Part shown: one piece after another, positions 6,642 to 34,651 of the stretch
Layout of the letters: every line of letters starts with the position of its first letter
Position numbering within the stretch: position 1 is the stretch's first letter
NCBI GenBank assembly: GCA_937863565.1
Contig: CALMGJ010000020.1
Span: forward strand, 838 to 64,837
DNA from: an uncultured bacterium
GTDB lineage: Bacteria; AUK180
Direction: 5' to 3'
Length of the DNA: 64,000 nucleotides
Translations under genes and position numbers: made by a program
Notes under the pieces: model-generated
What the model saw: the letters and a program-made list of their open reading frames with translations, nothing else
What the model was told of the DNA's origin: nothing
Databases searched by the model: none

Positions 6642-7735
6642 TATCTGATCCTCATCATGAAACCGCCCGGGATGTTCTGAGAGGGCGTGTATAAGACCGT
6701 ATCCCCTTCCGAGAGCCCTTCAAGCACTTCAAAGTGAAGAGTATCGCTCTTACCGAGCTTCACTTCCGTTTTTGCCTTTTTACCCTGCATACGGACATAC
6801 GGCCTTCCCTGTTCCCAGAAGACCGCGGCGAGAGGGATTATCAAGACATCCGGCGTTTCAAAAAGCACGATATTGACATTTGCGCTCATCCCCGGTTTGA
6901 TCGCACCGGCGGGATTATCGTTAATGCCTACTTTTACAGTAAACTGATTGAACACGTTCTTGGTCACTGCATTGAGGGAGATGAATATCACCTCGCCGTT
7001 CACTTTCATCTGCGGCATGGCATCAAAAGAGATCTCGCATCTCTGGCCCTGTTTAATGAAGGGTATATCGACCTCATCGACATCGATCATGATCTCGAGT
7101 GTCTTGAGGTCGCCTATATATCCTATGACCGTTCCGGCGGACATATTCTCCATCGCGGATTTTATGAATTCTCCCTCCTCCACCGTTTTCCCGTAGAATG
7201 TTCCGGCAGCGGTCGCCGAAACGGAATAAACGAATTTGCCCGAGAAGGTCCTCTCTTTAACATCTGAAAGGTATTCCATCTCGATCTTCGCGTTCTCGTA
7301 GGCTATTTTCGCGGCAATGTAATTCTTCTCCGTTTCATCGAACTCATTACGGGAGACGAATCCCTTTGGAAGCATGTCCTTGTACGAATCGTATTCATTG
7401 GAGACCGTCTCGAAGTCCTTTTTACTCAATGCATAGTTCTTTTTGATCCCGTTTATTCTTTGTATCTCGCTGATGTCGGGGTAGATGAAGAATATCTCCT
7501 GGCCTTTTTTAACCGACTCCCCTTCGTTCACGACATATCTTGCAAGTTCTCCCGATATCTTCGACATAACCTTAACAACGCTCTTAGGTTGGCATATGCC
7601 GCTTTCCATGACCTTTTTCGAGATCACGCCCTTTTTCACCTGGAACATTCTCTCTTCCGGCGCGGACATCTTTGCCTTTCCTTTTCCGCATGACAAAGCG
7701 AGAAGAAGGATCAAAAAAACAGGGGGTCGTTTCAT
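6641..7735 (-). CDS. efflux-transporter periplasmic adaptor subunit (HlyD/MacA-like membrane fusion protein), lipoprotein
   Basis: Lipobox LALSCG. Biotinyl/lipoyl-like hairpin (ISGELARYVVNEGESVKKGQEIF), coiled-coil segment, beta-barrel domain. No cognate pump gene adjacent. Confidence 0.75.
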   Translation of the reverse strand: MKRPPVFLILLLALSCGKGKAKMSAPEERMFQVKKGVISKKVMESGICQPKSVVKVMSKISGELARYVVNEGESVKKGQEIFFIYPDISEIQRINGIKKNYALSKKDFETVSNEYDSYKDMLPKGFVSRNEFDETEKNYIAAKIAYENAKIEMEYLSDVKERTFSGKFVYSVSATAAGTFYGKTVEEGEFIKSAMENMSAGTVIGYIGDLKTLEIMIDVDEVDIPFIKQGQRCEISFDAMPQMKVNGEVIFISLNAVTKNVFNQFTVKVGINDNPAGAIKPGMSANVNIVLFETPDVLIIPLAAVFWEQGRPYVRMQGKKAKTEVKLGKSDTLHFEVLEGLSEGDTVLYTPSQNIPGGFMMRIR

Positions 7736-8210: not shown

Positions 8211-8289
8211 ATTCCTCCCTTCTCGCGTAAGCTAAAGGAAATGATACAAAAAACTTGAAAAAAAATCAAAAAAACATTAAAATTCCCTT

Positions 8290-11200
8290 ATGGGAAGAAT
8301 CGACGAACTTCAGGTCTTTTTAAATCGTATTCAAAGCAACATTGCCAAAGATTCGGATTATCTTTCGGCCATGGCCATTCTTGCCAAGGAGGACAATTAC
8401 CCCAAGATACTTTCCCTCGCTCAGAATGGAAGAGCCCTCTTTCCGAATAACGGCATTTTTGATTACTGGTTCTCCCTCTCCAACTACAAAACCGGTAATA
8501 TCGAGATGGCCTTCGATACGATCGTCATCGCGATCGGAAAAACCCCCGAACACAAGGACAGCATTCTGCTGGCGCTTGATCTGGCAAGGATCACTAATGA
8601 AACAGGCAGTCTGATATCTTTCTTTAAGCTTGCCTTGGAACAATTGCCGAATAACCCCGATGTCCTCGAGAAGATAAGGGATTTCTTTGCCAATAATCCG
8701 GAATTGGTGAACGAGAACACCGATCTTCTGATGAAGACATATCTGAACGGCAAAAAAGAGGCCGGCGAGCTTTTATTCGACAAACTGTACTTTGAGAAAG
8801 CGGATGCCCCGGAAGCCCTTGATATATTCATCGAGAATTACGAGAAGAAGAAAAGCGATGAGGATTTCCTGAAATTCCTCGTTCTGGGCATCATTAAGAG
8901 CAGCCGGAAGGACCCCAAGGCGATAAATGCTTTGCGTGAAATATACAAGGCCGGGTTCAAATACAAGGACGTTATAAGTTACCTCGCCGATTTCTTTGCG
9001 TCCAAGGGGGTTTGGGACGATGAATCCCAGATCATCTGTGAAAATGCCGTTGCGTTGAAGATAGCCTCCTTCAACGTGTACAAGTTCCTTGCGCAGAAAT
9101 ATATGATGCTCCAACTCAAGGATGAGGACTCCCTCGAGATCATCTTCGGGTTCTTTGTTCATGAATCTGACAATAAAGATACGATAGCCTATCTCATTCC
9201 GTATATTATTAAAAAGGATAAATTCACGGAAGAGGAACGCGCATTCCTCAAGATCGCGTTCAAACTTTATCCCGAAAATTTCGATATCTTCAAAAAACTC
9301 GTGGAAAACCTCCTTTTCACTCCGGAAGAGGTTATCGACAATCTTTCTCTTCTTCAAAAGTATCTTGAAGAGAACCCCAATTCCGAGAGCGCCATAAGGC
9401 TTCTCGGCAATTCATACCTCAAACTCGGAAGAAGGGATTCTGAAGCCCTTTTCATTTACGAGAACCTCGTCAGGTTTGAACCGGAGAACGAAGAGCTGAT
9501 CCGCATACTCACAGAGTATTATCTCAGCGAGAACAGGAAGAGCAGACTGGCCATCATCATTTATGAGAAAGCTTTCTCGATGGGCATCAAATCGGTCCCT
9601 CTTTACAAACTGCTTTCAGACTACTATATCGAGAAGAACCTCGTCAACAACGACAATATTTCCGTTTTCCAGTTCGTATACGAGGATATCAGACAGGTAA
9701 GGGAGCACTATAGCGAATTTCTCGGACTTTTGCTAGGTTCTATAAAGGAAGGCAAGGTCAAACTTGAAGCTAACGAGTTCTTCTTCGATGTGCTCCGCGA
9801 CATCATCGACATACTCGGCGACGAGAACTACCTGAATGAATTTCTGAAATACGCGGTTGAATTCAAACGGATAGATAACGATTCACTCGCTCTTTACAAG
9901 AAGCTGTACGATAAGAAAAAGGACGACAAGGATTTTATCACACTCCTTTCCGAATGTTATTTCTCACGCAATGTCCTCGATGATACGGGAAGAGAGGTTT
10001 TTGAAAAACTTTTCCCCTCCTTTGAGGGCGATAAGAAACAGAAGGCCATCCTCCTTCTTTCGCAGTTTTATGTGGACAATAAAGTTCGCAATGATTTTTC
10101 TTCGGAGATCATTTCCTGGTCAAATGAACTTGTTTCCAAGGGCATCAAGCACGAGGGTAACCTCGAAAGGATGGTGCAGTTCGCCGTCAAGCACGGGAAA
10201 CAGGACCTTGAAACGCTCGAGCTGCTCACGCATTACCTCGAGATCAATAAGAACAATGCCGCCGTTTACCAGGCCGCAATGAATATAACCATAGCGCAGA
10301 GGATATACGAGAAGAAATACATCGGCATTGCAAAAAGAGCGCTCTCTTTCTACCCTGAATGGCCGGACCTTTTTAATTACTATGCGGTACTTCTCGCAGA
10401 GAACAAAGTGCGCGATGACGATACGTACGCGATATGGGAGAAATACCTGTTGCGGGGAGGAGAGGCGGATGTTATCATCTTCGAACTTCTTTCCTATTAT
10501 ATAAACAACAGAACGATCGACTCGAAAGCCGAGAAGGTCATTAAGATAGCGATATCAAAAGAATACAAGAACGCCCAGATACTGCTTCAGTATGCAAGAT
10601 GCCTTGCCAAAAGCGGGAACTTCACCGAACTTATTAAGGTGCTGGTCGAAGTGATCAATTATGAGATCACCGCAGCGCCTGACGTGAAGTTCATAGCCGA
10701 CAATCTGATGCTTTTTGCCAAATTCGATATTTTGAACAAATTTCTGGACAAATATTCGGAAAAGTCACGCACGATAATGGGTTACAGGATCAGGAATCTT
10801 TTCTATTCTGATCAGCTGGATAAATACGAGAATTATCTCGTGGCCTATGTAAAGAATGCAGAAATGATACCGGAGAACGCCGATGTGTTCGAGATATTCG
10901 GAGATCATTTCTTCTATATTAAAAACGACCCCAGAAAGGCCATGCTGGGTTATGAATATTACCTTAACGTTTACGCCAATGACCCGCTCGTTCTTTATAA
11001 AGCCTCTTTGTGCTCAATAGCCAACGGGGACCTCTACAGCGCGTTAAAATATATAAAAAAACTTCTGCTTTTCAGAGAGAGCGATATCGAAGCGCTTAAG
11101 ATCGCAGCGAACATCCACCTCGAGCTCGGCCAGTATGACGAAGCCGCCCAGCTCTACAAGAAGATCCAAAGCGGCGGATACAATGATTTCCAGATCCTGA

Positions 11201-14200
11201 AGAATTATGCGGAAGCGCTGTTCAAATCCGGCCAGTATTTCTCCGCGGTCGATATTCTGCGTGAAATACTGACGGAGAATCCCGACGATACGGAGATCAT
11301 GCTGAAACTGGCCTATGCATATACGTATATCGATTTCAAGGAGGACGCAATACATACTCTCGAAAGGACGATCGAGCTCGATCCCTTGAACAGGGAGGCT
11401 ATTTTTTCGCTTTTCTCGATCTGCCTTGAAGACCAGCGGTGCGACGCCAAGGCTCAGAGGATCTACGAGATGGTGCTCACACTGGATCCTAAGAACATGG
11501 ACTCGGGTAAGATGCTCTCGCGCATTTATGCCATCAACGGGCGCAATGACGAACGCGCTTTCGCCGTTTATAAATTCTCCTTCTCGTACGGAGAACCACT
11601 TCCCGAGGTCGTGAAGATACTTGCCAACAGGGCTATCGAGAAGAACGCCGACCTCGAAAAGGATTTTGCCATAGAAGTCCTGAAGAACGCGGTGGATTTC
11701 TTCCCGTCGAACACGAAATACTGGTCCACACTAATAGACCTCCTTGTGGGCGAATTCGAACTCGAACAGTATGCCGATTTCTTCGAACGTTCCTTTAAGA
11801 AGGAAATAAGAGTGGCGGACTGCGCAGAAAAGCTTGCCGAGATATTCTTCGAAAGGAAGGATCTGGATAAGGCCCTGTTCTATTCGGTGGCCGCTTTGAA
11901 CCAGAATCCTTACAAGAGCAATATTTACAACCTCATGGGCGAAATATACATCATCAGAGGCGATATGGAAAAGGCGCGTGAAGTGCTGGAAAAGGCCATC
12001 AATTACGAACAGAACGGATTTGCGGCCTATGTGAACTACGCCAATGTGATGTATGAGCTGAAGAACGCTCCCCTTGCGCTCGCCAATCTCGAGAAGGCCC
12101 TGAAAATAAATTCATACTATCTGCCTGCCGTATTGAAATACGCAAGCATCGCAGCGGAGAAGAACGCCGAACTCGAAAAAGCGAAGGAATACCTGCGCTT
12201 CATCAAAGAGATCTATCAGAAGAACTGGAGCATCCCGTACTGGCTTTCCGTGCTCAATAAAAAGCTTGGGGATTATGATATCGCCGTTGCCAATGCCAAA
12301 GAGGCCCTCGAGATAGAGAAGAACGAGGAGATCGTTCTTCTGTACAGCGAGCTTCTATGGGAGAGCGGCAACAGAGAAGATGCGATCAACTTCCTCATGC
12401 CTTACAGGGAGATGAACTCCCCGCGGATATTCACCGCTTTGGGTAAATATTATTTCCAGAAGCAGGATTTCGACAATGCGAAACTCAATTTCGGACAGTC
12501 GATGAGCATCGATCAGAAGGATGTCGATACGCAGATCGAGATGGGCAAGCTGCAGTATTACGTGGACAAGGACATGGAAGCGGCGCAGGTGGCTTTCCAG
12601 AATATCTTCGATTTCGATCCCGAGAACGCCGAAGCGAAAAGATTCCTCGGCAAGATCCATTTTGCACGCAAGCAACTTGACAAATCGTACGAATATTATA
12701 ATCAGGTTCTGGAATTCCTCGATGAAGAGGATCAGAACTACCTCACGATGATCAATTTCCAGAATGAGCGATATGAAGATGTGCTCCAGATCGGGCCTCA
12801 GCTTCTCCGCAAGAATCCGGATAATATCAAGATCCTCTACATTCTTTTCAGAACCTATAAAAAGCTCAACCTTTACGAGCAGGCCATCGCGACCTTCAAT
12901 AAACTTCGCTTAAAATCCTCCGAAGCGGCCCAGGAACTTTTCGGAGAGTTCTTCGCCATACTGCTCGAAACGGGAGATGTGACCGGACTCAGGAAGGAGC
13001 TCATCACTCTCACAAAGGACCCGAAGGTCAAGGGCAACTATTCTGAATATTTCTTCTTTATCGAATACCTGCTCTATCAAACGGATTATAACGAGATCAA
13101 ATATGTGCTGCCGGACGTTCTGAAAGCAAAAGAGGAAACAGCGGATTTCAAAAAGAACAAATCGCTCATGCTCCTCCACATCCTTCTTTTCGAAAATGAC
13201 CTGGCCGCGATCGACAAGTTCATACATTTTTTCAACCGCGCAGACGAAACGATAAAATTCCTGACGGCCATTTTCCAGCATAAAAGCGGCAGACAGGAAA
13301 GTGCGATCATGAATTTCAAGGACACGCATATCTTCTGGGATAAACCTTTCTTTTACAGGTTCCTGAAGCTCTTCAAGGACAGCGGGGCCCTCAAGCATCT
13401 CAAAGAATCTTACAGATTCTCCCTCATCCTCGATATCTTGAGGATCGACGAGGCTTACAGCGACCTCGAAGGATGGATCGAACTTTTCATTTCTTTCGCC
13501 GAGGACCGCCTGGGAGAGAAATTCGCCGATAAGAACATCGACAAGGCGCTGAAGAACCTGCTCGCTCGAATGGAGCGTTACGAGCATATAGAAGGGAAAC
13601 AGCAGGACATCAACACGGACCTCGTACTTCATGTAACGCAGATCTTCAATTTCACCAAGAAGAATTACAAGGAAGCCAAGAAGATATCCCAGAAATACAC
13701 GAAAGACGGTTTGCTCTTCTGCAAAGCATTCTACGAAGAAGCCATGAAAAAGAAGATCGATACGAAGAAACTCCTGCGGGTGATCTCGGAGAACCTGCTC
13801 AAGGAAGAGATCCCGTTCTTCGTTTCCTTCCTTATTCAGCACAATATACCGGAGCTCATCAAGATCAAGATGCTTGACGAGGCGAAAGAACCCCTCGGGG
13901 AAGCTGAGATCGCCATTCTCTTCGATCTGTACAAGACCGGTCTGTTCGAGGATTCCGAATCTCTACGCGAGAAGCTCAAGACTTCGAATTCGTACTATAT
14001 GCGTTATCTCGTGTACAATTCACGCTTCGAAGAGGCTTACGAACTTGTTAAGAAGATGCATTATTTCGAATTCATCTCGCTCGAGAACAGCAAATATATA
14101 ATGGAGGTCCTCCGAATCAACGAGGACTACGATCAGCTCCTCTCCTACAAATTCAGGTTCTTCGAGAAGACCTTCATCGACGATGATTTCCAGCTCTATT

Positions 14201-17200
14201 ATGCGGTTTCTCTTTCAAAGTTCACGCTCGTGGATAATGCTCTCAAGATCTTGAGCTCCGTTAATTACTCCGAAGTGAGCTTTCTAAGCGCCATTGCGTC
14301 CGTCACGGACAATGATCAGGTCCCCGGAGATGCTGTTATAGATTCTTATATAGCATCCTCTCCAAGGCCGGAAGCCGTCTTTGAGCTTGTGAACTTCGCC
14401 AAAGATTACCGGAAAGACGTATTCTTGAAGCACGAGGAGCACCTGCGGGAGATCCTTTCACCGGAGGATTTTGAACTTCTTAAAGGCCGCACGCTGTTCA
14501 TGGAAGGAAAGTACTCTGAAGCAGCAGTATTCCTGAAGAAAAGCGACAGGCCGCAGGATTTCATGTGCGTGAGCTCGTTCCTTACCCCTGAAGAGAATAA
14601 GGCCATCCTGAAGCGTACTCTGTCTTATGTGGAATCAAGGATCGGTTATTTTTCGAAATACGAATCATTCCTCCCCTTCTCCTATAAAGGCATTTTCCTT
14701 CATAAATCCGCAGAGGATCTGCACAGGCTCCGTTATACTCTTTACGGCATCTATTCAGACGGGAGCGAACTCGATCAGCAGCTTCTCGTGGGAGAAGAGA
14801 TCGTCTCTGCCACTCCTGACCAGATGGAGATCTACAGCGGCATCTATTTCATCTATAAGGATTTTAAAAAGGATTACGGAAAAGCCCTGCATATTCTTAA
14901 TAAACTTCTCACCGCGAATCCCGAGGATTCGAAGCTTATCATCGAGAAAGCTAAACTGCTTAATGAGGAAGGCCGCGTCGATTATGCTCTCAATTTCCTC
15001 CTCGCCCAAGAAAAGAAAACGCGCGACATCCTTGCATTCACCGCAGAACTTTATGAGAGCAAGAAGATGTTCATAGATGCTATCGGCATCTATTCCCAGC
15101 TTTATGATATCTACAAGGAGCGCGAGATCTTCGAGAAGATCATTTCTCTTAAATATGATCTGAACCTGTACGCAGACCTGATAGATTCCGTGGGAAAAAG
15201 CGGGTTGAACTCGGATATGCTGTTTTACTATACAGGCATGTCCTTTCATAAGACCGGCGAATACAGAAGATCTAATGAGATGCTCACCAGGGTGAACCCC
15301 GACTTCCAGTTCAAGGATACCGTCAGCATAACGCTCGGGTTGAACAGCTTCAATCTCAAGGAATTCGAGAAGTCAAAGGGCGCTTTCAGCAAGGCCATCC
15401 AAAAGAAGATGAACGAGGATATCGCCTGGGCTAAACTGGCCGAAATACTTTATGCGAACGGTGAAAATGCCAATGCCGCGAAAGCTCTTGAAAAGGCGTT
15501 CAAGGTAGGTATAAATGATCCTACCGTGCATCTTCTCGCCGCGGAACTGTATTTCACGATGAACAAGAAGAGCGAACTCGTTAAAGAACTCCGTTTCCTT
15601 ACAAAGAATCCTCTGCCGGACGAGGCGCAATACCATCTGAGATACGGCAGCGTGCTATACAAGACGGGGAAGAACGACAAAGCTGAAACAGAGTTCCTCA
15701 GGGTACTTGACCTCGAGAATGACAATAGTGAAGCCCTGAAATACTTGACCGAGATATACCTTAAGGAGGAGGCATACCTGAAGTGTCTTCCCATCGTTCA
15801 AAGAGCCTATGAAGAAGACCCCGTCAAGAACGCGCTGTCATATTCGATCGCTCTTTATTCTACGGGCGAATACGCAAAGGCGAAAGAGATCGTTAAGAAC
15901 ATTTCTTCCGACGACGAAACGGTTTATTTGCTCAAAGGGAAACTCTACTATGAACTTAAGTCTTACGAGGAAGCCCAGGCCAGGTTCCAGATCATCCTTT
16001 CCAAGAATCCCAAGAATTTCGAAGCCCAGTTGTATATGGGGAAAGTGTACTCTGCCCAGTTCAAGATTCAGCAGGCCCTTCAGCATCTGAAGATCGCGGA
16101 ATCCCTGAACGAGAACAATTTTGAAGTGCTCAAATTCCTCGGTCTTTGCTACAATAAGCTCAGCGACACCATCAATACGATCATTTTCCTCAGGAAAGCC
16201 CTTACGGTCAAGCCCAACGACCATGAGACCATCGTCGAACTGGCCCAGCTCTACTTCAACAAAAAAAGATATAGAGAGGCTATCAAGGAGTTCAATAAAG
16301 CGATCAATATCAAGTTCAATATCCCGCAGTCCCATTTCCAGCTTGCAAAAGCATACCGAAATGTGGGAGATCTCTCCAATGCGGAAACGGCGATCAAGAA
16401 TGCGCTCGATCTTGACCCGAAGGAAGAGGTTTTTCTCGAGGAGAAGATCAATATCCTCAAGCTCAAGAGCAATTTCTCCGAAATATGCAAAACCCTTGAA
16501 CAATTCGAACAGGGCGGCGGGCCGCTTTCCCCGAAGTTCATGATGCACAAGGTCGAGGGGCTGAGGATGACCAACCGTTTCGATAATGCCCTGACCGAGA
16601 TCGGAAAATACGAGTTCCCCGCACCACTGAAGCGCGATGTAGAGAAGGAAAAAGCCCTGACGCTTTACCAGTTGCAGCGCTATGATGAAGCGCTCGTCAT
16701 CCTTGAAAAGCTCTACAAGGAGATCCCGGAGGATAAGCTGTTCATACCGCTCTGCCTTTCTCATCTCGAGAAGGACAATATCACAAGAGTGAAGCAGATC
16801 CTGAAGGGTTACAAGGGCGAACTGTTCAAGAGCGAGATCATCCCGTACATTCTCGGCTATATCGAGAAAAAAGAGGGCAATAAGGAGATCGCTCTCAATT
16901 ATTTCTATCAGGCGATCACCGTCAATAAAGGATTCGTCCGGGCATACCGGGAACTTTCTGAGATCTACTTCAAGAACCGCAACTATATAATGGCTGCGGA
17001 CATCATACACAATGCGCTGAAGTACGAAAAAGTGAAAAAGATGGATTTCTTCTACTACCTGGGCATCTGCTATATGAACCTGAACGAATACCCGAAGGCA
17101 TTGAAATACATGAAAGAGGCGCTGGCCTGGGATTATCAGGATTCCGGCCACTACATCTCCCAGATATACAAGAAGCTCGGATTGTGGGGATTCGCCCTTA

Positions 17201-17691
17201 TAACGATAAAAAGACTTCTTTTAGAGAACAGGATGAAAAGCGAGATCGCATGGCCGGACATCATTTATTACCTTTTCAGGATGGGAAGAAGGACCGATGC
17301 CGTTATCGAATCGTTCTTCCATCTGTCAGAGATAAAAGACGAGGAGATCATGAAGGAATTCTTAATGACGCTTCTCGAAGATTATGAAAAACCGTTCAGC
17401 GTGTACCTTATCGTAAGCCCGGGGCTGGATATATCACTGAAGAACGAGACGATGCTGGCCATCTATCTTGAAGCCGTATCCGGGATCGATAATCTTCCGG
17501 AGATAAAGGATACCGTGAAGAAAATAGAAGCGACCTTCGCCAATGCAGAGGCTCCCAGGCTTTTCGAAGCCCTTGGCGTTTACCATTACAAGAAGAACGA
17601 TCCTTCAAAGGCCTCCACATATCTGAAAAAAGCGATCGATCTCAATCCCGATCTGGAAAAGGCGATATATTTCCTTTCATTGATGAAATGA
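8290..17691 (+). CDS. giant (3133 aa) cytoplasmic tetratricopeptide-repeat (TPR) solenoid protein
   Basis: Single uninterrupted 9.4-kb ORF with no signal peptide. TPR signatures (..Y..G..Y...G.Y..A...F..AL.L.P.N) recur across the full length. Its stop overlaps the next gene's start (ATGA). Confidence 0.85.
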   Translation: MGRIDELQVFLNRIQSNIAKDSDYLSAMAILAKEDNYPKILSLAQNGRALFPNNGIFDYWFSLSNYKTGNIEMAFDTIVIAIGKTPEHKDSILLALDLARITNETGSLISFFKLALEQLPNNPDVLEKIRDFFANNPELVNENTDLLMKTYLNGKKEAGELLFDKLYFEKADAPEALDIFIENYEKKKSDEDFLKFLVLGIIKSSRKDPKAINALREIYKAGFKYKDVISYLADFFASKGVWDDESQIICENAVALKIASFNVYKFLAQKYMMLQLKDEDSLEIIFGFFVHESDNKDTIAYLIPYIIKKDKFTEEERAFLKIAFKLYPENFDIFKKLVENLLFTPEEVIDNLSLLQKYLEENPNSESAIRLLGNSYLKLGRRDSEALFIYENLVRFEPENEELIRILTEYYLSENRKSRLAIIIYEKAFSMGIKSVPLYKLLSDYYIEKNLVNNDNISVFQFVYEDIRQVREHYSEFLGLLLGSIKEGKVKLEANEFFFDVLRDIIDILGDENYLNEFLKYAVEFKRIDNDSLALYKKLYDKKKDDKDFITLLSECYFSRNVLDDTGREVFEKLFPSFEGDKKQKAILLLSQFYVDNKVRNDFSSEIISWSNELVSKGIKHEGNLERMVQFAVKHGKQDLETLELLTHYLEINKNNAAVYQAAMNITIAQRIYEKKYIGIAKRALSFYPEWPDLFNYYAVLLAENKVRDDDTYAIWEKYLLRGGEADVIIFELLSYYINNRTIDSKAEKVIKIAISKEYKNAQILLQYARCLAKSGNFTELIKVLVEVINYEITAAPDVKFIADNLMLFAKFDILNKFLDKYSEKSRTIMGYRIRNLFYSDQLDKYENYLVAYVKNAEMIPENADVFEIFGDHFFYIKNDPRKAMLGYEYYLNVYANDPLVLYKASLCSIANGDLYSALKYIKKLLLFRESDIEALKIAANIHLELGQYDEAAQLYKKIQSGGYNDFQILKNYAEALFKSGQYFSAVDILREILTENPDDTEIMLKLAYAYTYIDFKEDAIHTLERTIELDPLNREAIFSLFSICLEDQRCDAKAQRIYEMVLTLDPKNMDSGKMLSRIYAINGRNDERAFAVYKFSFSYGEPLPEVVKILANRAIEKNADLEKDFAIEVLKNAVDFFPSNTKYWSTLIDLLVGEFELEQYADFFERSFKKEIRVADCAEKLAEIFFERKDLDKALFYSVAALNQNPYKSNIYNLMGEIYIIRGDMEKAREVLEKAINYEQNGFAAYVNYANVMYELKNAPLALANLEKALKINSYYLPAVLKYASIAAEKNAELEKAKEYLRFIKEIYQKNWSIPYWLSVLNKKLGDYDIAVANAKEALEIEKNEEIVLLYSELLWESGNREDAINFLMPYREMNSPRIFTALGKYYFQKQDFDNAKLNFGQSMSIDQKDVDTQIEMGKLQYYVDKDMEAAQVAFQNIFDFDPENAEAKRFLGKIHFARKQLDKSYEYYNQVLEFLDEEDQNYLTMINFQNERYEDVLQIGPQLLRKNPDNIKILYILFRTYKKLNLYEQAIATFNKLRLKSSEAAQELFGEFFAILLETGDVTGLRKELITLTKDPKVKGNYSEYFFFIEYLLYQTDYNEIKYVLPDVLKAKEETADFKKNKSLMLLHILLFENDLAAIDKFIHFFNRADETIKFLTAIFQHKSGRQESAIMNFKDTHIFWDKPFFYRFLKLFKDSGALKHLKESYRFSLILDILRIDEAYSDLEGWIELFISFAEDRLGEKFADKNIDKALKNLLARMERYEHIEGKQQDINTDLVLHVTQIFNFTKKNYKEAKKISQKYTKDGLLFCKAFYEEAMKKKIDTKKLLRVISENLLKEEIPFFVSFLIQHNIPELIKIKMLDEAKEPLGEAEIAILFDLYKTGLFEDSESLREKLKTSNSYYMRYLVYNSRFEEAYELVKKMHYFEFISLENSKYIMEVLRINEDYDQLLSYKFRFFEKTFIDDDFQLYYAVSLSKFTLVDNALKILSSVNYSEVSFLSAIASVTDNDQVPGDAVIDSYIASSPRPEAVFELVNFAKDYRKDVFLKHEEHLREILSPEDFELLKGRTLFMEGKYSEAAVFLKKSDRPQDFMCVSSFLTPEENKAILKRTLSYVESRIGYFSKYESFLPFSYKGIFLHKSAEDLHRLRYTLYGIYSDGSELDQQLLVGEEIVSATPDQMEIYSGIYFIYKDFKKDYGKALHILNKLLTANPEDSKLIIEKAKLLNEEGRVDYALNFLLAQEKKTRDILAFTAELYESKKMFIDAIGIYSQLYDIYKEREIFEKIISLKYDLNLYADLIDSVGKSGLNSDMLFYYTGMSFHKTGEYRRSNEMLTRVNPDFQFKDTVSITLGLNSFNLKEFEKSKGAFSKAIQKKMNEDIAWAKLAEILYANGENANAAKALEKAFKVGINDPTVHLLAAELYFTMNKKSELVKELRFLTKNPLPDEAQYHLRYGSVLYKTGKNDKAETEFLRVLDLENDNSEALKYLTEIYLKEEAYLKCLPIVQRAYEEDPVKNALSYSIALYSTGEYAKAKEIVKNISSDDETVYLLKGKLYYELKSYEEAQARFQIILSKNPKNFEAQLYMGKVYSAQFKIQQALQHLKIAESLNENNFEVLKFLGLCYNKLSDTINTIIFLRKALTVKPNDHETIVELAQLYFNKKRYREAIKEFNKAINIKFNIPQSHFQLAKAYRNVGDLSNAETAIKNALDLDPKEEVFLEEKINILKLKSNFSEICKTLEQFEQGGGPLSPKFMMHKVEGLRMTNRFDNALTEIGKYEFPAPLKRDVEKEKALTLYQLQRYDEALVILEKLYKEIPEDKLFIPLCLSHLEKDNITRVKQILKGYKGELFKSEIIPYILGYIEKKEGNKEIALNYFYQAITVNKGFVRAYRELSEIYFKNRNYIMAADIIHNALKYEKVKKMDFFYYLGICYMNLNEYPKALKYMKEALAWDYQDSGHYISQIYKKLGLWGFALITIKRLLLENRMKSEIAWPDIIYYLFRMGRRTDAVIESFFHLSEIKDEEIMKEFLMTLLEDYEKPFSVYLIVSPGLDISLKNETMLAIYLEAVSGIDNLPEIKDTVKKIEATFANAEAPRLFEALGVYHYKKNDPSKASTYLKKAIDLNPDLEKAIYFLSLMK

Positions 17692-18116
17692 GATTCAAGA
17701 GGATAATCGCTTTTGTTCTTCTGCTCTTCATCCTCGCGGTGAACGCATTGCCGGGTTCATCCGTACAGAGCACGAAGGTCCTTGCCTTTTACCGGACTTC
17801 GGCTAACATTCTTTCCGTTTTCTCTTCAGGCGCTATTCTTCTTGGGACGGCCAATCTCTTCATCAGGGGCGATCCTGTCACTGAAGATCTCGATAAACTC
17901 CTGCATTTCACTTTCTATTTTATCCTTTCCTGCGCCTTTTTCGGGTCGGTGACGGGGCATACCGTCAGTCTCGGTTTTCTTTCATATTTTTCACTCGTGG
18001 ACGAACTTCACCAGATCCCCGTTTCCGGAAGAAGTTTTTCCCCCGGAGATATTTTTTTCGATCTGCTGGGTATTGCCCTGGTCTTCACGATGGCGGGTTC
18101 AGATGAAAAGCATTAA
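17688..18116 (+). CDS. VanZ-like family membrane protein
   Basis: 142 aa with 3-4 TM helices. DKLLHFTFYF...DELHQIPVSGRSFSPGDIFFDLLGIAL resembles the VanZ family motifs. Confidence 0.6.
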   Translation: MRFKRIIAFVLLLFILAVNALPGSSVQSTKVLAFYRTSANILSVFSSGAILLGTANLFIRGDPVTEDLDKLLHFTFYFILSCAFFGSVTGHTVSLGFLSYFSLVDELHQIPVSGRSFSPGDIFFDLLGIALVFTMAGSDEKH

Positions 18117-19521
18117 GTTCAAAACCCTGTTTTTTGTCCTGTGTCTTCTCGCTTTCCTTTTCATATTTCAATGGTATTTTATAAATTACTTCCTGAAGGG
18201 AGCTCTGGAAAAGCAGCTCATTAATTTCATGGCTAATATCGGCCAATCGGTCACGGGAGAGATCGATACGCGCCACCTCCAGGTTTTTGAGGGTTTTGAT
18301 ACAACCGTAACATATTCCAGACTGAAAGAGCGGCTTGAACATTATCTTGAAGATTTCAATATCGACAATATCAGTATCATCGATACGAACAAAAAGGTCG
18401 TAATAGACCTGAAATCAGGGCTTAAAAACGGCGACGACTTCGGGTATCTGGACCTCAACGAGATCCAGTTCAATGCCTTGAAGAGCGGAGTGATCAAACG
18501 TTCATCCCTTTACAAGAACGTTTACGGGAAATACACCGAGAACGTTTATATTCCGGTTTTCACCCCGAAGAGGGAATGCGCAGGCATTCTCATACTCAGC
18601 GCGTCTGCAAGGTTCTTGAACAGCATCGAAGATTTCCGCAAGAACATCCTGTGGCTGTACATTTCGCTCATTGTTCTTTCCTTAGGCCTGGGATTCCTGC
18701 TTTCCTCTTCTTTCGCACAGCCCGTTATCAACCTTTCAAAGATAGTTGACAGGATAGGCGGAGGCGACTACAGATCGCCGATACCGTACAGGAAGCGCAA
18801 TGACGAACTCGGGCATCTCGCAAGGAAGATCACAGAGATGATGCGCAAGATCGAACTTCGCGACCTTTTCATGAGGAAGATATCCGCGGGCATCGCGCAT
18901 GAGATAAGAAATCCCCTGACCGCGATCAAAGGCAATCTGATGCTGATCAAACGCAAATCGAACGGGAAGGAGATCGGTGAAATGATCGATGATAATCTGA
19001 AACAGGTGGACGCGCTTGAGGAGCTCGTTGCCGATTTCATGAATTTCGCCAAACCCGTAACGCTCGATATGAAACACATCCGTATCGGTGAAGTGTTGGG
19101 CTACGCATTGAAAGAGACCGAAATACTCCGCGGACAGAAGGAAGTAGAGCTCTTCTACGAATGCCCCGACGACGCTCTTATAGAAGGCGATATGAACTAT
19201 CTGAAAAGAGCTCTCGTAAATCTCATACGGAATGCGGCGGAGGCCGTGCCGGTAGGCGGGATGATCGAGATCACATGCCGCAGCGCCGACGGTAAATTAA
19301 CGCTGTACATAAAGGATTACGGGGCCGGTATAGACCCGGAGGACGCCGACAGGATCTTCGAACCGTTCTTTACGACAAAAACTACCGGCACCGGGCTGGG
19401 ACTTTCAATTGTTAAGGAAATCATGGAAAAACACGGCGGAAGCATAGATTTCGAATCCGTCAAAGGCGAGTATACGCGGTTCCGGATAGAGATGCCGCTT
19501 GCCAGGAGAGATTATGCATAG
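18103..19521 (+). CDS. sensor histidine kinase (periplasmic sensor, HAMP, HisKA, HATPase_c)
   Basis: Two TM helices flank a ~150-aa periplasmic domain. HAMP segment, H-box AHEIRNPLTAIKGN, N/G1/G2 boxes (NLIRNAAEA, DYGAGI, GTGLGLS). Start chosen at MKSIKF. Confidence 0.85.
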   Translation: MKSIKFKTLFFVLCLLAFLFIFQWYFINYFLKGALEKQLINFMANIGQSVTGEIDTRHLQVFEGFDTTVTYSRLKERLEHYLEDFNIDNISIIDTNKKVVIDLKSGLKNGDDFGYLDLNEIQFNALKSGVIKRSSLYKNVYGKYTENVYIPVFTPKRECAGILILSASARFLNSIEDFRKNILWLYISLIVLSLGLGFLLSSSFAQPVINLSKIVDRIGGGDYRSPIPYRKRNDELGHLARKITEMMRKIELRDLFMRKISAGIAHEIRNPLTAIKGNLMLIKRKSNGKEIGEMIDDNLKQVDALEELVADFMNFAKPVTLDMKHIRIGEVLGYALKETEILRGQKEVELFYECPDDALIEGDMNYLKRALVNLIRNAAEAVPVGGMIEITCRSADGKLTLYIKDYGAGIDPEDADRIFEPFFTTKTTGTGLGLSIVKEIMEKHGGSIDFESVKGEYTRFRIEMPLARRDYA

Positions 19522-20890
19522 AATACTTGTTATCGACGACAATGAACCCATCAGGAAGATGATCAAGAGGATCTTCGAAGCGGAAGACTTCGATTTCAGG
19601 GAAGCGGATACTCTGAAAAAAGCCCACGGCCTTCTCGATAAAGAGATGTTCAATCTTATCATCACCGATCTGAAGCTGCCTGACGGCGAAGGATCGGAAG
19701 TCCTGGAAAGGCGCAATGCTAACCGGTGGAACAGTGAAGTGATCATCATAACGGCGTACGGCGACGTTGAAACGGCCGTGAGCGCCATGAAGGAAGGCGC
19801 TTTCGATTTCGTGATAAAACCGATCAATATCGATGAGTTCGAGGCAAGGGTCAAGAAGGCCCTCGAGCGCGTCAGTCTGAAGAAAGAGAACGAAGTGCTG
19901 AAGCAAACGATCAATTACATTGTCGACTCGGATCACGCCGACCTCGCGTTTTCCGACATCATAGGCCGGTCTTCCCAGATGGACGAGATCATTGAGCTTG
20001 TAAAAAGGGTGAGCCGGTCTTCCGCATCGGTCCTTATTACCGGGGAATCCGGCGTGGGAAAGGAATTGATCGCCCGGGCCATTCATTTCAATTCCGACAG
20101 GAAAGACAAGCCGTTCATCAAAGTAAACTGCGCGGTTTTTTCCGAGGGCATACTCGAGTCGGAGCTGTTCGGGCACGAAAAGGGAGCCTTCACGGGAGCA
20201 CTGCAAAAAAGACTGGGCAGATTCGAGATCGCTGACGGCGGCACTATATTCCTGGACGAGATCGGCGATCTGTCGCCTCACCTTCAGATAAAACTGCTTC
20301 AGGTTCTCCAGGAATACAATTTCGAGAGGGTGGGAGGGAATGAGGTCATCAAGGTAGATGTGAGGATCATTGCGGCTACGAACCAGGACCTTGCGGAGAA
20401 GATCAAACAGAAAACTTTCAGGGAGGACCTCTTCTACAGGATAAATGTCGTCCCTTTACATATTCCGCCTCTCAGAGAAAGGAAAAAGGATATAGAGGTG
20501 CTCACTGAGCATTTCATTTGCAAATACGCATCCCTGGCGTCCAAGGGGCCAATGAGGATAGACGGCAAAGTGATGGAGATACTGAAGGATTATGATTGGC
20601 CCGGGAATGTGAGGGAACTGGAACATGCCATTGAACGCATGGTGATATTAAGCCGCGGCGAAACGATCTCCGAAGCCGATATTCCAAGGGAGATATTCAA
20701 TCCCGAGCCGAAGAAACCGCAAAGCGACAATATTGACGGCGACCTGAAGAGCATCCTTGAAAATTTCGAAAAGGAAACGATAAGGTTCTATCTTGTGAAA
20801 TTCAATTTCGACAAGAACATCGTAGCGGCGAAACTGGGATTGAAGTTATCCACGCTGTATAATAAGATAGAGAAATACGGTCTTAAGTGA
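19514..20890 (+). CDS. sigma-54-dependent response regulator (NtrC family: REC, AAA+ sigma-54 activator, Fis-type HTH)
   Basis: REC with ITDLKLPDG. Walker A GESGVGKE, GAFTGA motif, C-terminal HTH. The ATG overlaps the kinase stop. Confidence 0.9.
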   Translation: MHRILVIDDNEPIRKMIKRIFEAEDFDFREADTLKKAHGLLDKEMFNLIITDLKLPDGEGSEVLERRNANRWNSEVIIITAYGDVETAVSAMKEGAFDFVIKPINIDEFEARVKKALERVSLKKENEVLKQTINYIVDSDHADLAFSDIIGRSSQMDEIIELVKRVSRSSASVLITGESGVGKELIARAIHFNSDRKDKPFIKVNCAVFSEGILESELFGHEKGAFTGALQKRLGRFEIADGGTIFLDEIGDLSPHLQIKLLQVLQEYNFERVGGNEVIKVDVRIIAATNQDLAEKIKQKTFREDLFYRINVVPLHIPPLRERKKDIEVLTEHFICKYASLASKGPMRIDGKVMEILKDYDWPGNVRELEHAIERMVILSRGETISEADIPREIFNPEPKKPQSDNIDGDLKSILENFEKETIRFYLVKFNFDKNIVAAKLGLKLSTLYNKIEKYGLK

Positions 20891-21612
20891 AAAAAGGCAT
20901 CGCAACCGCCTTACTGATACTTTTCCTTTTGGCGGTCGGCGCAGAAGATCATAAGGCGATCCTTGCCAGGATGAAGTCCAGGGAATCGGAGATACTCAAG
21001 ATAGAGAAATCGGAAAACGCCCTGATGACCAAACTCGAGAAGTTGGAAGGGCGGACGGATTTCCTTTCCAACAAAAGAAGGGAGGGTTATCTGAATAAGA
21101 TGAGCGCCCTGCAGCACAAGAAAGCCGAGAATAAAAAGATCTACGACGAGCTCAAAGCAAGATTGAGGACGGTGCTTCAGGACGATCTTGAGATAATGGA
21201 AAAAAGGATGTTCACCGTTCTGAAATCGGCGGATGCTTCGGAGATGCTCGTTTTCCTGGAGGAATTCTTCGACAAAAAGAACCTTTTTGATTTTTACTTT
21301 GACGAGAAAATTGATATAATAACGACAGAGGATGAGCCGGAGGATATCGTAAAAGCGAAACTCAAGCTCATCGGAGATAAGGTGAACACCTATAAGGACA
21401 GCATCGATAAGAGCCGAAAGATGATTAAGGATATTGAGGCACAGATAAAGTTCTTCAAAGACACGCAAATAGATATCCTGAGCGGAAGGACGCTGAGGAA
21501 CGAAACGATCGATTTCCTTGAGAAGATCGTAAGGTATCTCGAAAAAGACATCGAGAATAAGGAACGCCTTTCTGAATTCTACAAGGAACAGATGAGAAGA
21601 ATGGGGGGATAA
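20887..21612 (+). CDS. hypothetical periplasmic coiled-coil protein (signal peptide)
   Basis: N-terminal signal peptide. Highly charged and helical. Overlaps the upstream gene by 4 nt. Confidence 0.5.
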   Translation: MKKGIATALLILFLLAVGAEDHKAILARMKSRESEILKIEKSENALMTKLEKLEGRTDFLSNKRREGYLNKMSALQHKKAENKKIYDELKARLRTVLQDDLEIMEKRMFTVLKSADASEMLVFLEEFFDKKNLFDFYFDEKIDIITTEDEPEDIVKAKLKLIGDKVNTYKDSIDKSRKMIKDIEAQIKFFKDTQIDILSGRTLRNETIDFLEKIVRYLEKDIENKERLSEFYKEQMRRMGG

Positions 21613-21613
21613 G

Positions 21614-22276
21614 ATGAAGAAGCGTCTGCTGTTAATACTGTGTTCATTAATGCTTGCCGGGCCTTTTATTGTCCGGGCGGCCGATACGAAGGCCAAGAAC
21701 ATAATCCGTCGCGATGACATGCTGGACAATGAATTCCATGATTTCCTTGATAACGAGTATCTCGGTTCTTTCATTTTATCGGACAGGACACTCGGGATGA
21801 TCGCGACGATCAATGGCAATTCCTTCTATGTGAAGAGAATCAAGGACGCCGATAATTTCTGCCTGAAGATCATCGACATGGATACGGGACAGCAGCTGAC
21901 CACTCTTCCGTATTTCCGTATGGACCAGTTCTCGCTCGATCCTACCGGCAATTATTACGTGATAGAACTGGGGAATGGAGAGGTCATAGAGATCCCTATC
22001 TGGATGAGCGCCGCCGATATCGCGCAAGTCCTTGCCAATTACTCGGGTGTTCCCATCTATTACGGCGATCAGATAATCGGCGTGACCCTGTTCCTTACCG
22101 ACAGCATCCAACTTAGCCTTTTCAATCCGTTCTACGGCCTTTACAATGTCCAGTTCAAGAATCTGACCGATAAGATCTTCGAGAACATGAAGCTGGACCT
22201 CTTCTTTGATTCGGGTGCCGGCCTCATCTTTGAAAAGAAAAAGGAAAAAAACGAGAAGGAAGAAAAAAAGGAATGA
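21614..22276 (+). CDS. hypothetical secreted protein
   Basis: Signal peptide MKKRLLLILCSLMLAGPFIVRA. Lys/Glu-rich C-terminal tail. Confidence 0.5.
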   Translation: MKKRLLLILCSLMLAGPFIVRAADTKAKNIIRRDDMLDNEFHDFLDNEYLGSFILSDRTLGMIATINGNSFYVKRIKDADNFCLKIIDMDTGQQLTTLPYFRMDQFSLDPTGNYYVIELGNGEVIEIPIWMSAADIAQVLANYSGVPIYYGDQIIGVTLFLTDSIQLSLFNPFYGLYNVQFKNLTDKIFENMKLDLFFDSGAGLIFEKKKEKNEKEEKKE

Positions 22277-23367
22277 ATAAGACCTCCGGACTGTTGATCG
22301 CGGCTTTATTGCTTTTTATATTAATGCCTCTTCAGGCCGAGCAGTCCTTCATCCTCATTAACGGATATGAGAAAACGCTTGCCCTTTACCAGAACGGATG
22401 GAAGATCAATATCGCGGATGAATTCAAGAGTTTCGATATCGATCTTTACCTTCTCAATATCAACCAGTTCACCAAGGAGAATAAATTCCTGTCCAGTTAT
22501 TTCACTTATGCGGGGATCGCCCGGGATATCGATCTCGGAACGAAAGACTACTTGAAATTCGAGCTCGTTCTGAAGAACGAGGACAATTACGATCCCCTGC
22601 TCTCATCTTCGAAAATAATGCTCAGGGAGAATTTCTATCATATCATCAATATCAACAATTACCTGAAATTCCAGCTCTTTCAGCAGTATGCCGATTTCAC
22701 TAATACGGATATCCTCGATTTCTACAGGTTGGGATTGTTCGGGAAGGTCCTTAAAAGGGCGTCCGCGGCGGATTCTATTTTCTCCAGCGCGCAGATTTTG
22801 TACACATACCTGCCTAAGTGGCGGGGAAGTGTAGACGAGGCCGGCGAGAAAAGGCACGACTTCACGGGCACCGTATTCGTATCATTCTCCAGATATCTTA
22901 GCCGGAACTTCATATTGGACATGAAATATCAGATGATATTCAACACATCATCCTCGAAAGCAGGGCAGATTGACATCAAATACTATCAGCTGGAATTGCC
23001 CGGGGATGAAGATGCTCCGGCTGTCGCATACGATTATTATGATTATTTCCTTCACGCCCTCTCATTTGAGTTCGTCCGATATCTCAGTTCGCGCTTTTTT
23101 GTCAAGATCCTCTTTAAATTCGAAAGCAAGGAATATTCGGAACGGAAAGCGTACAGAGAGGACGGGACGCTGAAAAGCGAACTGGAACGCGATTTCAATA
23201 TGATCAGCAGTCTCCTTTTCATCCTGAAGGACATTCCCGTGAAACATATCAATGCTTTTATCGAACTGAAGTATGAAAATAAGAGTTCAAATAATGAATT
23301 TGAAGGCTATTTCTACTACAATGTCAGGAAGCTCTACTTAAACCTGAATCTTCTGTACAATTTCTGA
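22273..23367 (+). CDS. hypothetical secreted protein, possible outer-membrane beta-barrel
   Basis: Signal peptide. Alternating amphipathic beta-strand pattern. Ends in ...LNLLYNF (aromatic C-terminal residue typical of OMPs). Confidence 0.5.
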   Translation: MNKTSGLLIAALLLFILMPLQAEQSFILINGYEKTLALYQNGWKINIADEFKSFDIDLYLLNINQFTKENKFLSSYFTYAGIARDIDLGTKDYLKFELVLKNEDNYDPLLSSSKIMLRENFYHIININNYLKFQLFQQYADFTNTDILDFYRLGLFGKVLKRASAADSIFSSAQILYTYLPKWRGSVDEAGEKRHDFTGTVFVSFSRYLSRNFILDMKYQMIFNTSSSKAGQIDIKYYQLELPGDEDAPAVAYDYYDYFLHALSFEFVRYLSSRFFVKILFKFESKEYSERKAYREDGTLKSELERDFNMISSLLFILKDIPVKHINAFIELKYENKSSNNEFEGYFYYNVRKLYLNLNLLYNF

Positions 23368-23386: not shown

Positions 23387-23415
23387 TTGAAAAAATGGTA
23401 AAAATCCTTTATAAT
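23387..23415 (+). promoter_or_regulatory. consensus sigma-70-type promoter TTGAAA-N17-TATAAT for the por operon
   Basis: TTGAAA at 23387-23392, 17-nt spacer, TATAAT at 23410-23415. A GGAGG Shine-Dalgarno lies 8 nt before the ATG at 23447. Confidence 0.5.
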
Positions 23416-27053: not shown

Positions 27054-27067
27054 ATGAGGGTAGTACT

Positions 27068-27655: not shown

Positions 27656-27658
27656 ATC

Positions 27659-28129: not shown

Positions 28130-28130
28130 A

Positions 28131-34460: not shown

Positions 34461-34651
34461 TTGTTTGATTATACTAAAAAGACGGTAAAAATACAAATAA
34501 TGCAACACTATGAAAACCAGGCTTCGCGCGTCATGCAGTTTTTTTACAACTCCATCCTGCCTCTTCGGAAAATCTTTTTGACTTATTTCATTTAAATGTG
34601 TATAATTCCAAAGTATAGCATTTTTTGGCATTAAATATGCAGGCATAAACC

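Follow-up and report, generated by a model that had tools for sequence, protein, structure and literature searches.

Results

A conserved seven-gene locus

We analysed a window of 64,000 nucleotides (nt) from an uncultured bacterium (contig CALMGJ010000020.1, positions 838 to 64,837, assembly GCA_937863565.1). The locus described here opens with a giant gene at 8290-17691 (+) and continues with genes for a VanZ-family membrane protein, a sensor histidine kinase, a sigma-54-dependent response regulator and three exported proteins that we call S1, S2 and S3, all on the plus strand. We found that these seven genes form one conserved unit, which matches no described system. The giant gene is a single frame of 3,133 codons that starts with ATG, stops with TGA and has no internal stop codon; by arithmetic, the chance of a stop-free run of this length is ~(61/64)^3133, or ~1e-65. 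An identical protein is on record in NCBI, ENA and Logan; the contig index returned no exact match to the giant protein. Full-length orthologues of 3,138-3,140 amino acids (aa), sharing 40-50% identity with it, are found in five other assemblies (L001-L005). Hence the giant open reading frame (ORF) is not an assembly artefact. These data bear out a preliminary description made from the letters of this DNA, which had reported a 9.4-kb ORF encoding a 3,133-aa protein: no frameshift or stop splits the frame, and the orthologues elsewhere are equally full-length. The features of the locus are the following, where TPR stands for tetratricopeptide repeat and TM for transmembrane segment:

8255..8283, plus strand: putative sigma-70-type promoter (consensus scan, 10/12 matches; conserved in L001/L003/L005 and L004)
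8290..17691, plus strand: giant TPR/TPR-like alpha-solenoid, predicted, 3,133 aa (intact ORF, Pfam TPR matches, AlphaFold2 model of a segment, orthologues)
17688..18116, plus strand: VanZ-family (Lipocone, VanZ-2-like) inner-membrane protein, 142 aa (PF04892, NF037970)
18103..19521, plus strand: sensor histidine kinase (TM1, periplasmic domain of ~150 aa, TM2, HAMP, HisKA, HATPase_c)
19514..20890, plus strand: NtrC/AtoC-type sigma-54-dependent response regulator (REC, AAA+ with GAFTGA, HTH_8)
20887..21612, plus strand: S1, exported, 241 aa, GTG start (N-terminal hydrophobic segment, orthologues)
21614..22276, plus strand: S2, exported, 220 aa (signal-like N-terminus, orthologues)
22273..23367, plus strand: S3, exported, 364 aa, candidate outer-membrane beta-barrel (signal-like N-terminus, C-terminal Y-N-F)

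From the giant gene to S3, the junctions measure -4 (ATGA), -14, -8, -4 (GTGA), +1 and -4 (ATGA) nt. The stop codon of the giant gene overlaps the start of the VanZ gene, as had been noticed, and this ATGA is kept in all loci, which points to coupled synthesis of the giant protein and VanZ. For the kinase, ATG 18103 is the most likely start, in a 14-nt overlap with VanZ, and the regulator starts at ATG 19514, in an 8-nt overlap with the kinase, because the N-termini of the orthologues are conserved: those of the kinase begin with MKSIK or MRSIK, and those of the regulator with M-x-[KR]-IL-[LV]-[IV]-DDN. S1 begins with a GTG codon that overlaps the regulator gene by 4 nt, and a gap of 1 nt separates S1 from S2. 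The earlier proposal that all the genes are joined by overlaps of 4-8 nt holds for four junctions (-4, -8, -4 and -4) but not for VanZ/kinase (-14) and S1/S2 (+1). Two long ORFs run antisense to the giant gene, at 15838-17151 (-) (437 aa) and 12910-13842 (-) (310 aa). Neither has a Pfam match at E <= 1, and both are most likely by-products of codon usage on the sense strand.

Conservation and boundaries of the module

Using tblastn with each protein of the module, we found the seven genes in the same order, on the same strand and with tight junctions in L003, L004 and L005, which are complete loci from metagenome-assembled genomes (MAGs). In L001 and L002, the giant gene, VanZ and the N-terminal part of the kinase follow one another up to the contig ends. 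Both flanks of the module differ in every lineage. The recurrence of the same seven genes amid unrelated flanks indicates that the giant gene and S3 are the exact ends of the conserved unit, and answers positively whether the neighbourhood of VanZ, kinase, sigma-54 regulator and three secreted proteins is conserved. Identity of the orthologues to the proteins of the window is as follows:

Giant protein: 40-50%
VanZ: 35-42%
Histidine kinase: 46-47%
Response regulator: 65%, the best-conserved gene of the module
S1: 32-34% (L003-L005)
S2: 55-60%, the best-conserved non-regulatory gene
S3: 48-50%

None of the genes that flank the module in the window recurs beside it in the compared loci. In the window, UPF0047, HlyD, BatD and Wzy_C-TPR genes lie upstream, and genes for pyruvate:ferredoxin oxidoreductase, an MglA module and MnmA lie downstream. 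In L003 and L005, the module stands between P-II/GAF genes (upstream) and pyrimidine genes (downstream), and in L004 it stands between an AAA_14/DUF4143 ATPase gene and glycosyltransferase genes of the GT9 and GT2 families. The upstream stretch 3793-7735 (-) of the window codes for an O-antigen ligase-like membrane protein (Wzy_C) with fused TPRs, a protein resembling BatD and a membrane-fusion protein of the HlyD family. These genes on the opposite strand give the module an envelope-glycan setting in the window, which is not kept beside it in other lineages. The 3' end of the ENA scaffold L001 is probably chimeric, as the sequence at 12600-12701 shifts from the N-terminus of the kinase to an RnpA-like peptide (...KRNRIKRRMREIYRK). 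The PADLOC defence models returned only generic TPR and AAA+ similarities when compared with the module proteins.

A giant protein conserved without repeat drift

The giant proteins of the four lineages share a mean pairwise identity of 46% and align over ~3,135 residues with only 35 gapped columns, the largest indel being 3 aa. Including the protein of the window, their lengths range from 3,133 to 3,140 aa. Conservation is spread evenly along the chain (0.33-0.64 per 100 aa in the four-lineage alignment), and the protein is under purifying selection over its full length. Such strict colinearity is unusual for a repeat protein and implies a constraint on every single hairpin. The giant gene contains no DNA tandem repeats, which rules out a recent repeat expansion.

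An exhaustive HMMER search with residues 1501-2300 against 1.84 billion representative proteins retrieved four sequences at E <= 1e-30, namely the query's own protein and three fragments, and the remaining matches reach no further than its terminal TPR units. Its central 640 aa (profile positions 1-640) have no homologue outside the family among the 1.84 billion proteins. Moreover, JGI metagenome contigs contained no relatives when scanned with the S2 alignment and with the alignment of the giant protein. The giant-protein family is rare. Two further candidate loci, L007 and L008, were discarded as family members; they code for ordinary TPR proteins with 23-30% identity over parts of the sequence and have no VanZ.

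Many Pfam TPR models score above their cut-offs on the giant protein (TPR_19, 244 bits; TPR_2, 188 bits). When the protein was scanned in ten pieces, strong matches were confined to residues ~900-1560 and 2200-3133 and weak ones appeared at ~350-420 and ~755-790, while residues 1-314 and 1571-2198 had none. A 34-residue hidden Markov model (HMM), trained iteratively on the repeats of the giant protein and its orthologues, recognized 29 units, ~20 of them clear. The AlphaFold2 model of residues 1501-2300, built on a three-sequence alignment, consists of 51 short helices and no strands; its mean predicted local distance difference test score (pLDDT) is 66.9, with stretches above 80 and 187 residues below 50. 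Foldseek comparison of this model with the PDB returned TPR/HAT scaffolds only (IFT-A TTC21B, Ski3, Ctr9, APC/C subunits, Naa15 and TTC7), at E-values from 1e-6 to 1e-3 and with template-modelling scores of 0.15-0.26, low values being expected for a flexible superhelix. Only families of the TPR type match the giant protein in Pfam, NCBIfam and the PDB, and its composition is even along the chain (Pro+Gly 3-9% per 200 aa).

Because the model is all-helical and its only fold matches are of the TPR/HAT type, an alpha-solenoid of canonical and degenerate TPR-like hairpins is a reasonable description of the modelled part. The giant protein would have ~100 hairpins if the helix density of this part holds throughout. 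The model of GltI, a TPR protein of 3,822 aa from the Agl-Glt system of Myxococcus xanthus, is ~1,100 Å long (PMC11761067), and by scaling from it the extended solenoid could reach ~90 nm. The preliminary description had seen an uninterrupted TPR solenoid of 80-90 repeats. The all-helical, TPR/HAT-like fold of the modelled part agrees with this view, but the Pfam-negative regions and the ~29 units of the HMM do not. A scan for Walker A, HExxH, CxxC and GxSxG motifs found none in the giant protein, and a hydropathy scan found no hydrophobic segment, and therefore neither a signal peptide nor a TM helix. As anticipated, then, the giant protein has no signal peptide or catalytic domain, and its sequence is most likely that of a cytoplasmic protein.

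All-TPR proteins of such a size had been called rare. This has to be qualified, since GltI has 3,822 aa and other TPR proteins of 2,900-3,600 aa exist in unrelated gene contexts. The neighbours of three of these proteins of 3,000-3,600 aa (P0004, P0012 and P0018) are Laminin_G_3 or WD40 genes, so a giant TPR protein next to VanZ is not a general theme. In addition, the whole giant protein passes curated NCBIfam cut-offs for PrsT (317.2 vs 312.2 bits), MamA (213.6 vs 200 bits) and SctY (112.1 vs 70 bits). These cut-offs are passed through the addition of TPR scores, and annotation pipelines may therefore misname the protein.

VanZ, the two-component pair and the exported proteins

Domain matches and hydrophobic N-termini agree with the genes previously proposed downstream of the giant gene, that is, VanZ, a histidine kinase, a sigma-54 activator and three proteins with signal peptides. 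VanZ scores above the cut-offs of PF04892 (37.7 vs 30.1 bits) and NF037970 (37.6 vs 20 bits). Three windows pass the hydropathy threshold, and further TM helices would be expected from the family. Three motifs of VanZ are invariant in the four lineages: D69-K70-x-x-H73 (D69-K70-L-L-H73 in the window), D105-E106-x-x-Q109 and D121-x-x-x-D125 (D121-I-F-F-D125 in the window). According to the main text of the Lipocone analysis (PMC12419801), the active site of VanZ-2 is made of an RKxxH motif in helix 2 and a DxxxD motif in helix 4; the first and the third of our motifs correspond to these, with D in place of R. VanZ keeps its putative catalytic motifs. The same text predicts that the Lipocone superfamily cleaves or transfers head groups of polyprenyl-phosphate-linked intermediates of peptidoglycan or exopolysaccharide (PMC12419801).

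In the kinase, TM segments at residues 1-31 and 180-206 enclose an external domain of ~150 aa, followed by the Pfam domains HAMP, HisKA and HATPase_c. The sensor domain has no Pfam match at E <= 1. The regulator is a complete sigma-54 activator with a GAFTGA loop (Response_reg, E = 4.5e-24; Sigma54_activat, 1.8e-72; HTH_8, 2.7e-06). Its best NCBIfam match, AtoC at 464 bits, falls below the cut-off of 714, and therefore no equivalog is assigned; PrsR reaches 389.8 bits against a cut-off of 502.6.

Hydropathy of S1, S2 and S3 reveals an N-terminal, signal-like hydrophobic segment in each and no further TM. None of them has a family match in Pfam (E <= 1), NCBIfam or PADLOC, or a meaningful sequence match in profile searches of the PDB. 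S1 is rich in K, E and L, has no lipobox Cys and probably forms a coiled coil. S2 has long invariant blocks across its orthologues and a C-terminal tail rich in K and E. In S3, the hydrophobic segment covers residues 1-29, F, Y and W together account for 17.9% of the residues, and the C-terminus Y-[NE]-F is invariant in four orthologues (Y-N-F in the window). A word-based search with S3 returned one orthologue as its sole match. The signal-like N-terminus, the aromatic richness and the C-terminal motif fit an outer-membrane beta-barrel, for which S3 is a candidate. The similarity of its ending to that of outer-membrane barrels had been pointed out before, and this ending is indeed conserved. 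As to the fold, the AlphaFold2 model, made from two sequences, has a pLDDT of 35.4 and was left out of the fold search, a hydrophobic-moment scan found only seven amphipathic beta segments, and Pfam, NCBIfam and the PDB profile search gave no match to an outer-membrane-protein family.

Promoter and regulatory signals

The best sigma-70-type match on the plus strand of the 79-nt gap before the giant gene is TTGAAA-17 nt-TAAAAT at 8255-8283 (10/12 matches), which ends 6 nt before the ATG. No Shine-Dalgarno sequence precedes the giant gene in the window. The window, the L001/L003/L005 loci and L004 share the block AAAAAACTTGAAA, a 17-nt spacer, TAnAAT and a distance of 5-6 nt to the ATG, all of them invariant, and the sequence upstream of the block is not conserved. 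This pattern suggests a promoter. A promoter at 5-6 nt from the start codon, together with the lack of a Shine-Dalgarno sequence, points to an mRNA that is probably leaderless or near-leaderless. In the most divergent lineage (L002/L006), there is no leaderless promoter; the giant gene lies 17 nt after a PP-loop-family gene (L002, 2590-2606) and is preceded by the Shine-Dalgarno-like sequence AGAGGGA. Thus, the mode of translation initiation differs between lineages.

At the other end of the module, no intrinsic terminator was found on the plus strand after S3. A near-consensus promoter, TTGAAA-17-TATAAT, lies at 23387-23415 (+) and marks the next operon. This -10 box and the ATG listed at 23414 for the gene of the pyruvate:ferredoxin oxidoreductase gamma subunit overlap, so that either this start is misplaced or that operon is likewise leaderless.

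The preliminary description also had the three secreted genes under the control of the two-component system. We could not substantiate this point, since no -24/-12 site lies upstream of them and a sigma-70-type promoter precedes the giant gene instead. With up to two mismatches, TGGCAC-N5-TTGC occurs 19 times in the window (31 matches expected by chance), never upstream of a module gene, and none of the seven genes, be it in the window or in L001-L005, is preceded by GG-N10-GC with up to three mismatches. Sigma-54 auto-regulation of the module was rejected on these grounds, and the targets of the regulator must therefore lie elsewhere in the genome. The best sigma-54-like site of the window, TGGCATTAAATATGCA at 34626-34641 (+), has two mismatches to TGGCAC-N5-TTGCA. 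The start codon of a gene for an N-acetylmuramoyl-L-alanine amidase (Amidase_3), ATG 34652, follows 11 nt downstream, and on the opposite strand the site runs into the 5' end of a GAF-HD gene (33306-34646). A sigma-54 activator may act at this site.

Host and other features of the window

The host is an unclassified, uncultured bacterium of the Fibrobacterota-Chlorobiota-Bacteroidota (FCB) group, whose GroEL shares 80% identity with proteins labelled '[bacterium]' and 67-70% with those of KSB1, Calditrichota and Zixibacteria. Related MAGs appear to come from studies of marine sediments or cold seeps, judged only by sample names such as 'CSMAG'. The type IX secretion system (T9SS) cargo and the MglA module noticed earlier are both present. 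An 832-aa T9SS cargo protein with eight CarboxypepD_reg-like repeats and a C-terminal Por_Secre_tail sorting domain is encoded at 61266-63764 (-), and the organism therefore uses type IX secretion. The MglA module, at 26466-28853 (+) and 3.1-5.5 kb downstream of the seven genes, comprises MglA (P-loop GPGLCGKTT and TVPGQ switch) with an MglB-like Roadblock protein on each side, as well as a DUF4388/PATAN protein with an MshEN-type cyclic di-GMP-binding motif. In L003, L004 and L005, the 4-10 kb on either side of the module contain no MglA, MglB or PATAN genes. Finally, positions 1-2000 of the window have a G+C content of 35.8%, against ~46-47% elsewhere, and carry an Abi_2 (abortive-infection-like) gene at 469-1332 (-); this segment may be foreign DNA.

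Discussion

In this study, we characterized a seven-gene module that we tentatively read as an envelope module particular to its lineage, with a cytoplasmic scaffold docked to VanZ at its core, a possibility that we favour short of calling it probable. In the mechanism that we propose, the operon would be transcribed from the conserved sigma-70-type promoter, probably into a leaderless mRNA. The solenoid of ~3,100 residues would be made in step with VanZ in the cytoplasm, where it probably docks on VanZ and possibly on the kinase. The substrates of VanZ would be envelope intermediates, either polyprenyl-phosphate-linked or phospholipid, on whose head groups it would act, and the solenoid would be a platform bringing cytoplasmic partners to this membrane site. 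The periplasm-sensing kinase and the sigma-54 activator might relay envelope conditions to a regulon elsewhere in the genome, and S1 (coiled coil), S2 (globular) and S3 (likely an outer-membrane protein) would make up the part of the assembly that lies in the periplasm and outer membrane. A giant cytoplasmic TPR scaffold that organizes envelope machines has a precedent in GltI (PMC11761067). The idea of a giant cytoplasmic scaffold linked to a two-component system that controls envelope components was already present in the preliminary description. Its first half fits our data, because the giant protein is likely cytoplasmic and the remaining products include membrane and exported proteins; for control of the secreted genes by the two-component system, the data give no support.

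Several observations weigh against this scaffold-and-VanZ reading. The reaction proposed for VanZ in the main text of the Lipocone paper concerns flipped intermediates at the outer face of the membrane (PMC12419801), so that contact with a partner in the cytoplasm would be limited to loops or termini of VanZ. Envelope-glycan genes stand beside the module in only two of the four lineages (Wzy_C in the window, GT9/GT2 in L004). Over residues 1-900, a solenoid is suggested by TPR matches and even composition, the AlphaFold2 model covering residues 1501-2300. The place of S1-S3 as the periplasmic and outer-membrane part of one assembly is drawn entirely from co-transcription and signal peptides, and all the physical contacts, like the VanZ substrate and the direction of signalling, are ones that we infer. 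In addition, the family is known from a handful of MAGs, so that its observed conservation has a narrow phylogenetic base.

An unlikely alternative is that the module is a signalling system of the PrsK/PrsR/PrsT type, known from PEP-CTERM/exosortase XrtA systems. The TPR protein would then be an accessory of the kinase/sigma-54 pair, the three would jointly activate sigma-54-dependent surface or exopolysaccharide genes elsewhere, and VanZ and S1-S3 would be co-regulated passengers or targets. A large TPR protein, a transmembrane kinase and a sigma-54 regulator make up the Prs trio, typical of sediment and biofilm bacteria and with a regulon outside its operon (PMC1569441), and the regulon of our module evidently lies outside it as well. 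PrsR is among the top matches of the regulator (389.8 bits), and the giant protein passes the cut-off of the PrsT model TIGR02917 (317.2 vs 312.2 bits), with a colinear stretch of residues 745-1411 over profile positions 142-803. However, this score is summed over five stretches of a protein 3.5 times as long as the model (3,133 aa vs 899 positions), the MamA and SctY cut-offs are passed likewise, and the N-terminal 900 aa alone score 36 bits. TIGR02917 is named PEP_TPR_lipo in NCBIfam and PrsT is a lipoprotein, but the giant protein has neither a signal peptide nor a lipobox. The regulator stays under the PrsR cut-off, with AtoC and NtrC scoring higher, and PrsK is not among the best 25 families of the kinase. 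Moreover, neither a PEP-CTERM protein nor an exosortase turned up in the window or the other loci, VanZ and S1-S3 are not part of Prs, and a pure accessory role leaves unexplained why 3,100 residues should remain colinear within 3 aa.

Somewhat less likely still is a gliding or focal-adhesion-type machine, with the solenoid as a functional analogue of GltI (AgmK), S1-S3 as the outer part and MglA in control of polarity. GltI is also giant, cytoplasmic and made almost only of TPR-type hairpins, is encoded together with envelope proteins and is thought to scaffold the several envelope-spanning Agl-Glt complexes (PMC11761067). The true MglA with its two MglB-like partners and the PATAN/DUF4388 protein downstream of the module, the T9SS cargo and the exported proteins, including a candidate outer-membrane protein, would suit such a machine. 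A motility link of this kind, suggested from the MglA genes nearby, is not upheld by our data. Their adjacency is not conserved in L003, L004 and L005, and Pfam and NCBIfam reveal no TolQR/ExbBD/MotAB-like motor and no TonB-like, FHA or GYF protein in the module; the Agl/AglRQS motor, GltG/J (TonB-like, FHA, GYF) and other Glt genes are not among the module and window genes scanned. Conversely, Agl-Glt includes neither a VanZ nor a two-component system. The GltE model scores 103 bits against a cut-off of 225, a generic TPR similarity. In the search with residues 1501-2300, homologues of the central region of the giant protein are confined to its own family and no protein of ~3,800 aa is among the best 150 of 165 hits at E <= 0.001; judged indirectly from this search, no specific homology to GltI was detected. 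A cytoplasmic molecular ruler or cytoskeleton-like element, whose fixed length would space membrane complexes such as VanZ and the kinase along the envelope, seems improbable to us. The constant length, the lack of indels above 3 aa at 46% identity, the absence of DNA tandem repeats, and hence of drift in repeat number, and the even conservation are what it would predict, but hairpins that each bind a partner of their own would lead one to expect colinearity just as much. Neither polymerization nor a length-dependent phenotype is in evidence, and the sample consists of only four lineages. That seven unrelated ORFs adjoin by chance, or that the giant ORF is a chimera, is scarcely credible. The chimeric look of the L001 3' end and a function that is not known could be cited for it, but it is refuted by five independent assemblies, in which the full-length ORF and the gene order recur amid different flanks, and by the conserved overlaps of start and stop codons.

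A bolder version of the scaffold-and-VanZ reading joins it to the ruler. Here, the length-invariant solenoid of ~90 nm would be a ruler or track of a new envelope organiser, positioning an active VanZ and its periplasmic and outer-membrane partners, with its own kinase/sigma-54 output. We regard this as speculative and rather unlikely.

Giant TPR scaffolds, VanZ operons and modules of a TPR protein with a kinase and a sigma-54 regulator are known kinds of system. What is new is their combination: a strictly colinear giant solenoid, as predicted, with a family-specific central third, overlapping an intact VanZ and followed by a kinase/sigma-54 pair and three orphan exported proteins. In the literature searched, we found no description of this combination, in agreement with the earlier remark that no characterized system has this gene order. 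The VanZ-2 Lipocone operons (Burroughs et al., eLife 2025) resemble our module in that, as far as their main text describes them, a small VanZ-2-type protein with an intact active site is encoded with outer-membrane or periplasmic components in the FCB group, and the coupling of VanZ to signalling proteins is a described theme. Nevertheless, the FCB operon presented there has an SprA-like channel, GcvH-like and TonB-C proteins and a Wzi-like barrel, none of which is in our module, and a giant cytoplasmic TPR partner with a kinase/sigma-54 pair is not among the VanZ contexts described in the passages of that main text that were consulted (PMC12419801). The exopolysaccharide exporters that combine TPRs and a beta-barrel (AlgK/AlgE, PelB, BcsC and PgaA) also come to mind, because our module too encodes a long TPR array and a candidate outer-membrane barrel, in surroundings related to glycans (VanZ, and Wzy_C or GT9/GT2 in two lineages). 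In those exporters, the TPRs lie in the periplasm and often belong to the same chain as the barrel. Unlike them, the TPR protein of our module has no export signal, is separate and is about ten times longer, and the BcsC and PgaA models score 55-71 bits on it against cut-offs of 367-858.

This lineage is uncultured and represented by few MAGs, and the function of the system is read here from sequence. What the widespread VanZ proteins do has been enigmatic since the description of the vancomycin-resistance operons; a recent analysis predicts, in its main text, that they process the head groups of lipid carriers (PMC12419801). The module described here is a new and specific context in which this idea can be tested. 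Along with GltI, to which it is apparently unrelated, the giant protein is also a candidate second case of a bacterial TPR protein that exceeds 3,000 residues, is cytoplasmic and may organize envelope components. If the envelope-organiser reading were true, the module would provide the first defined macromolecular context for the VanZ family.

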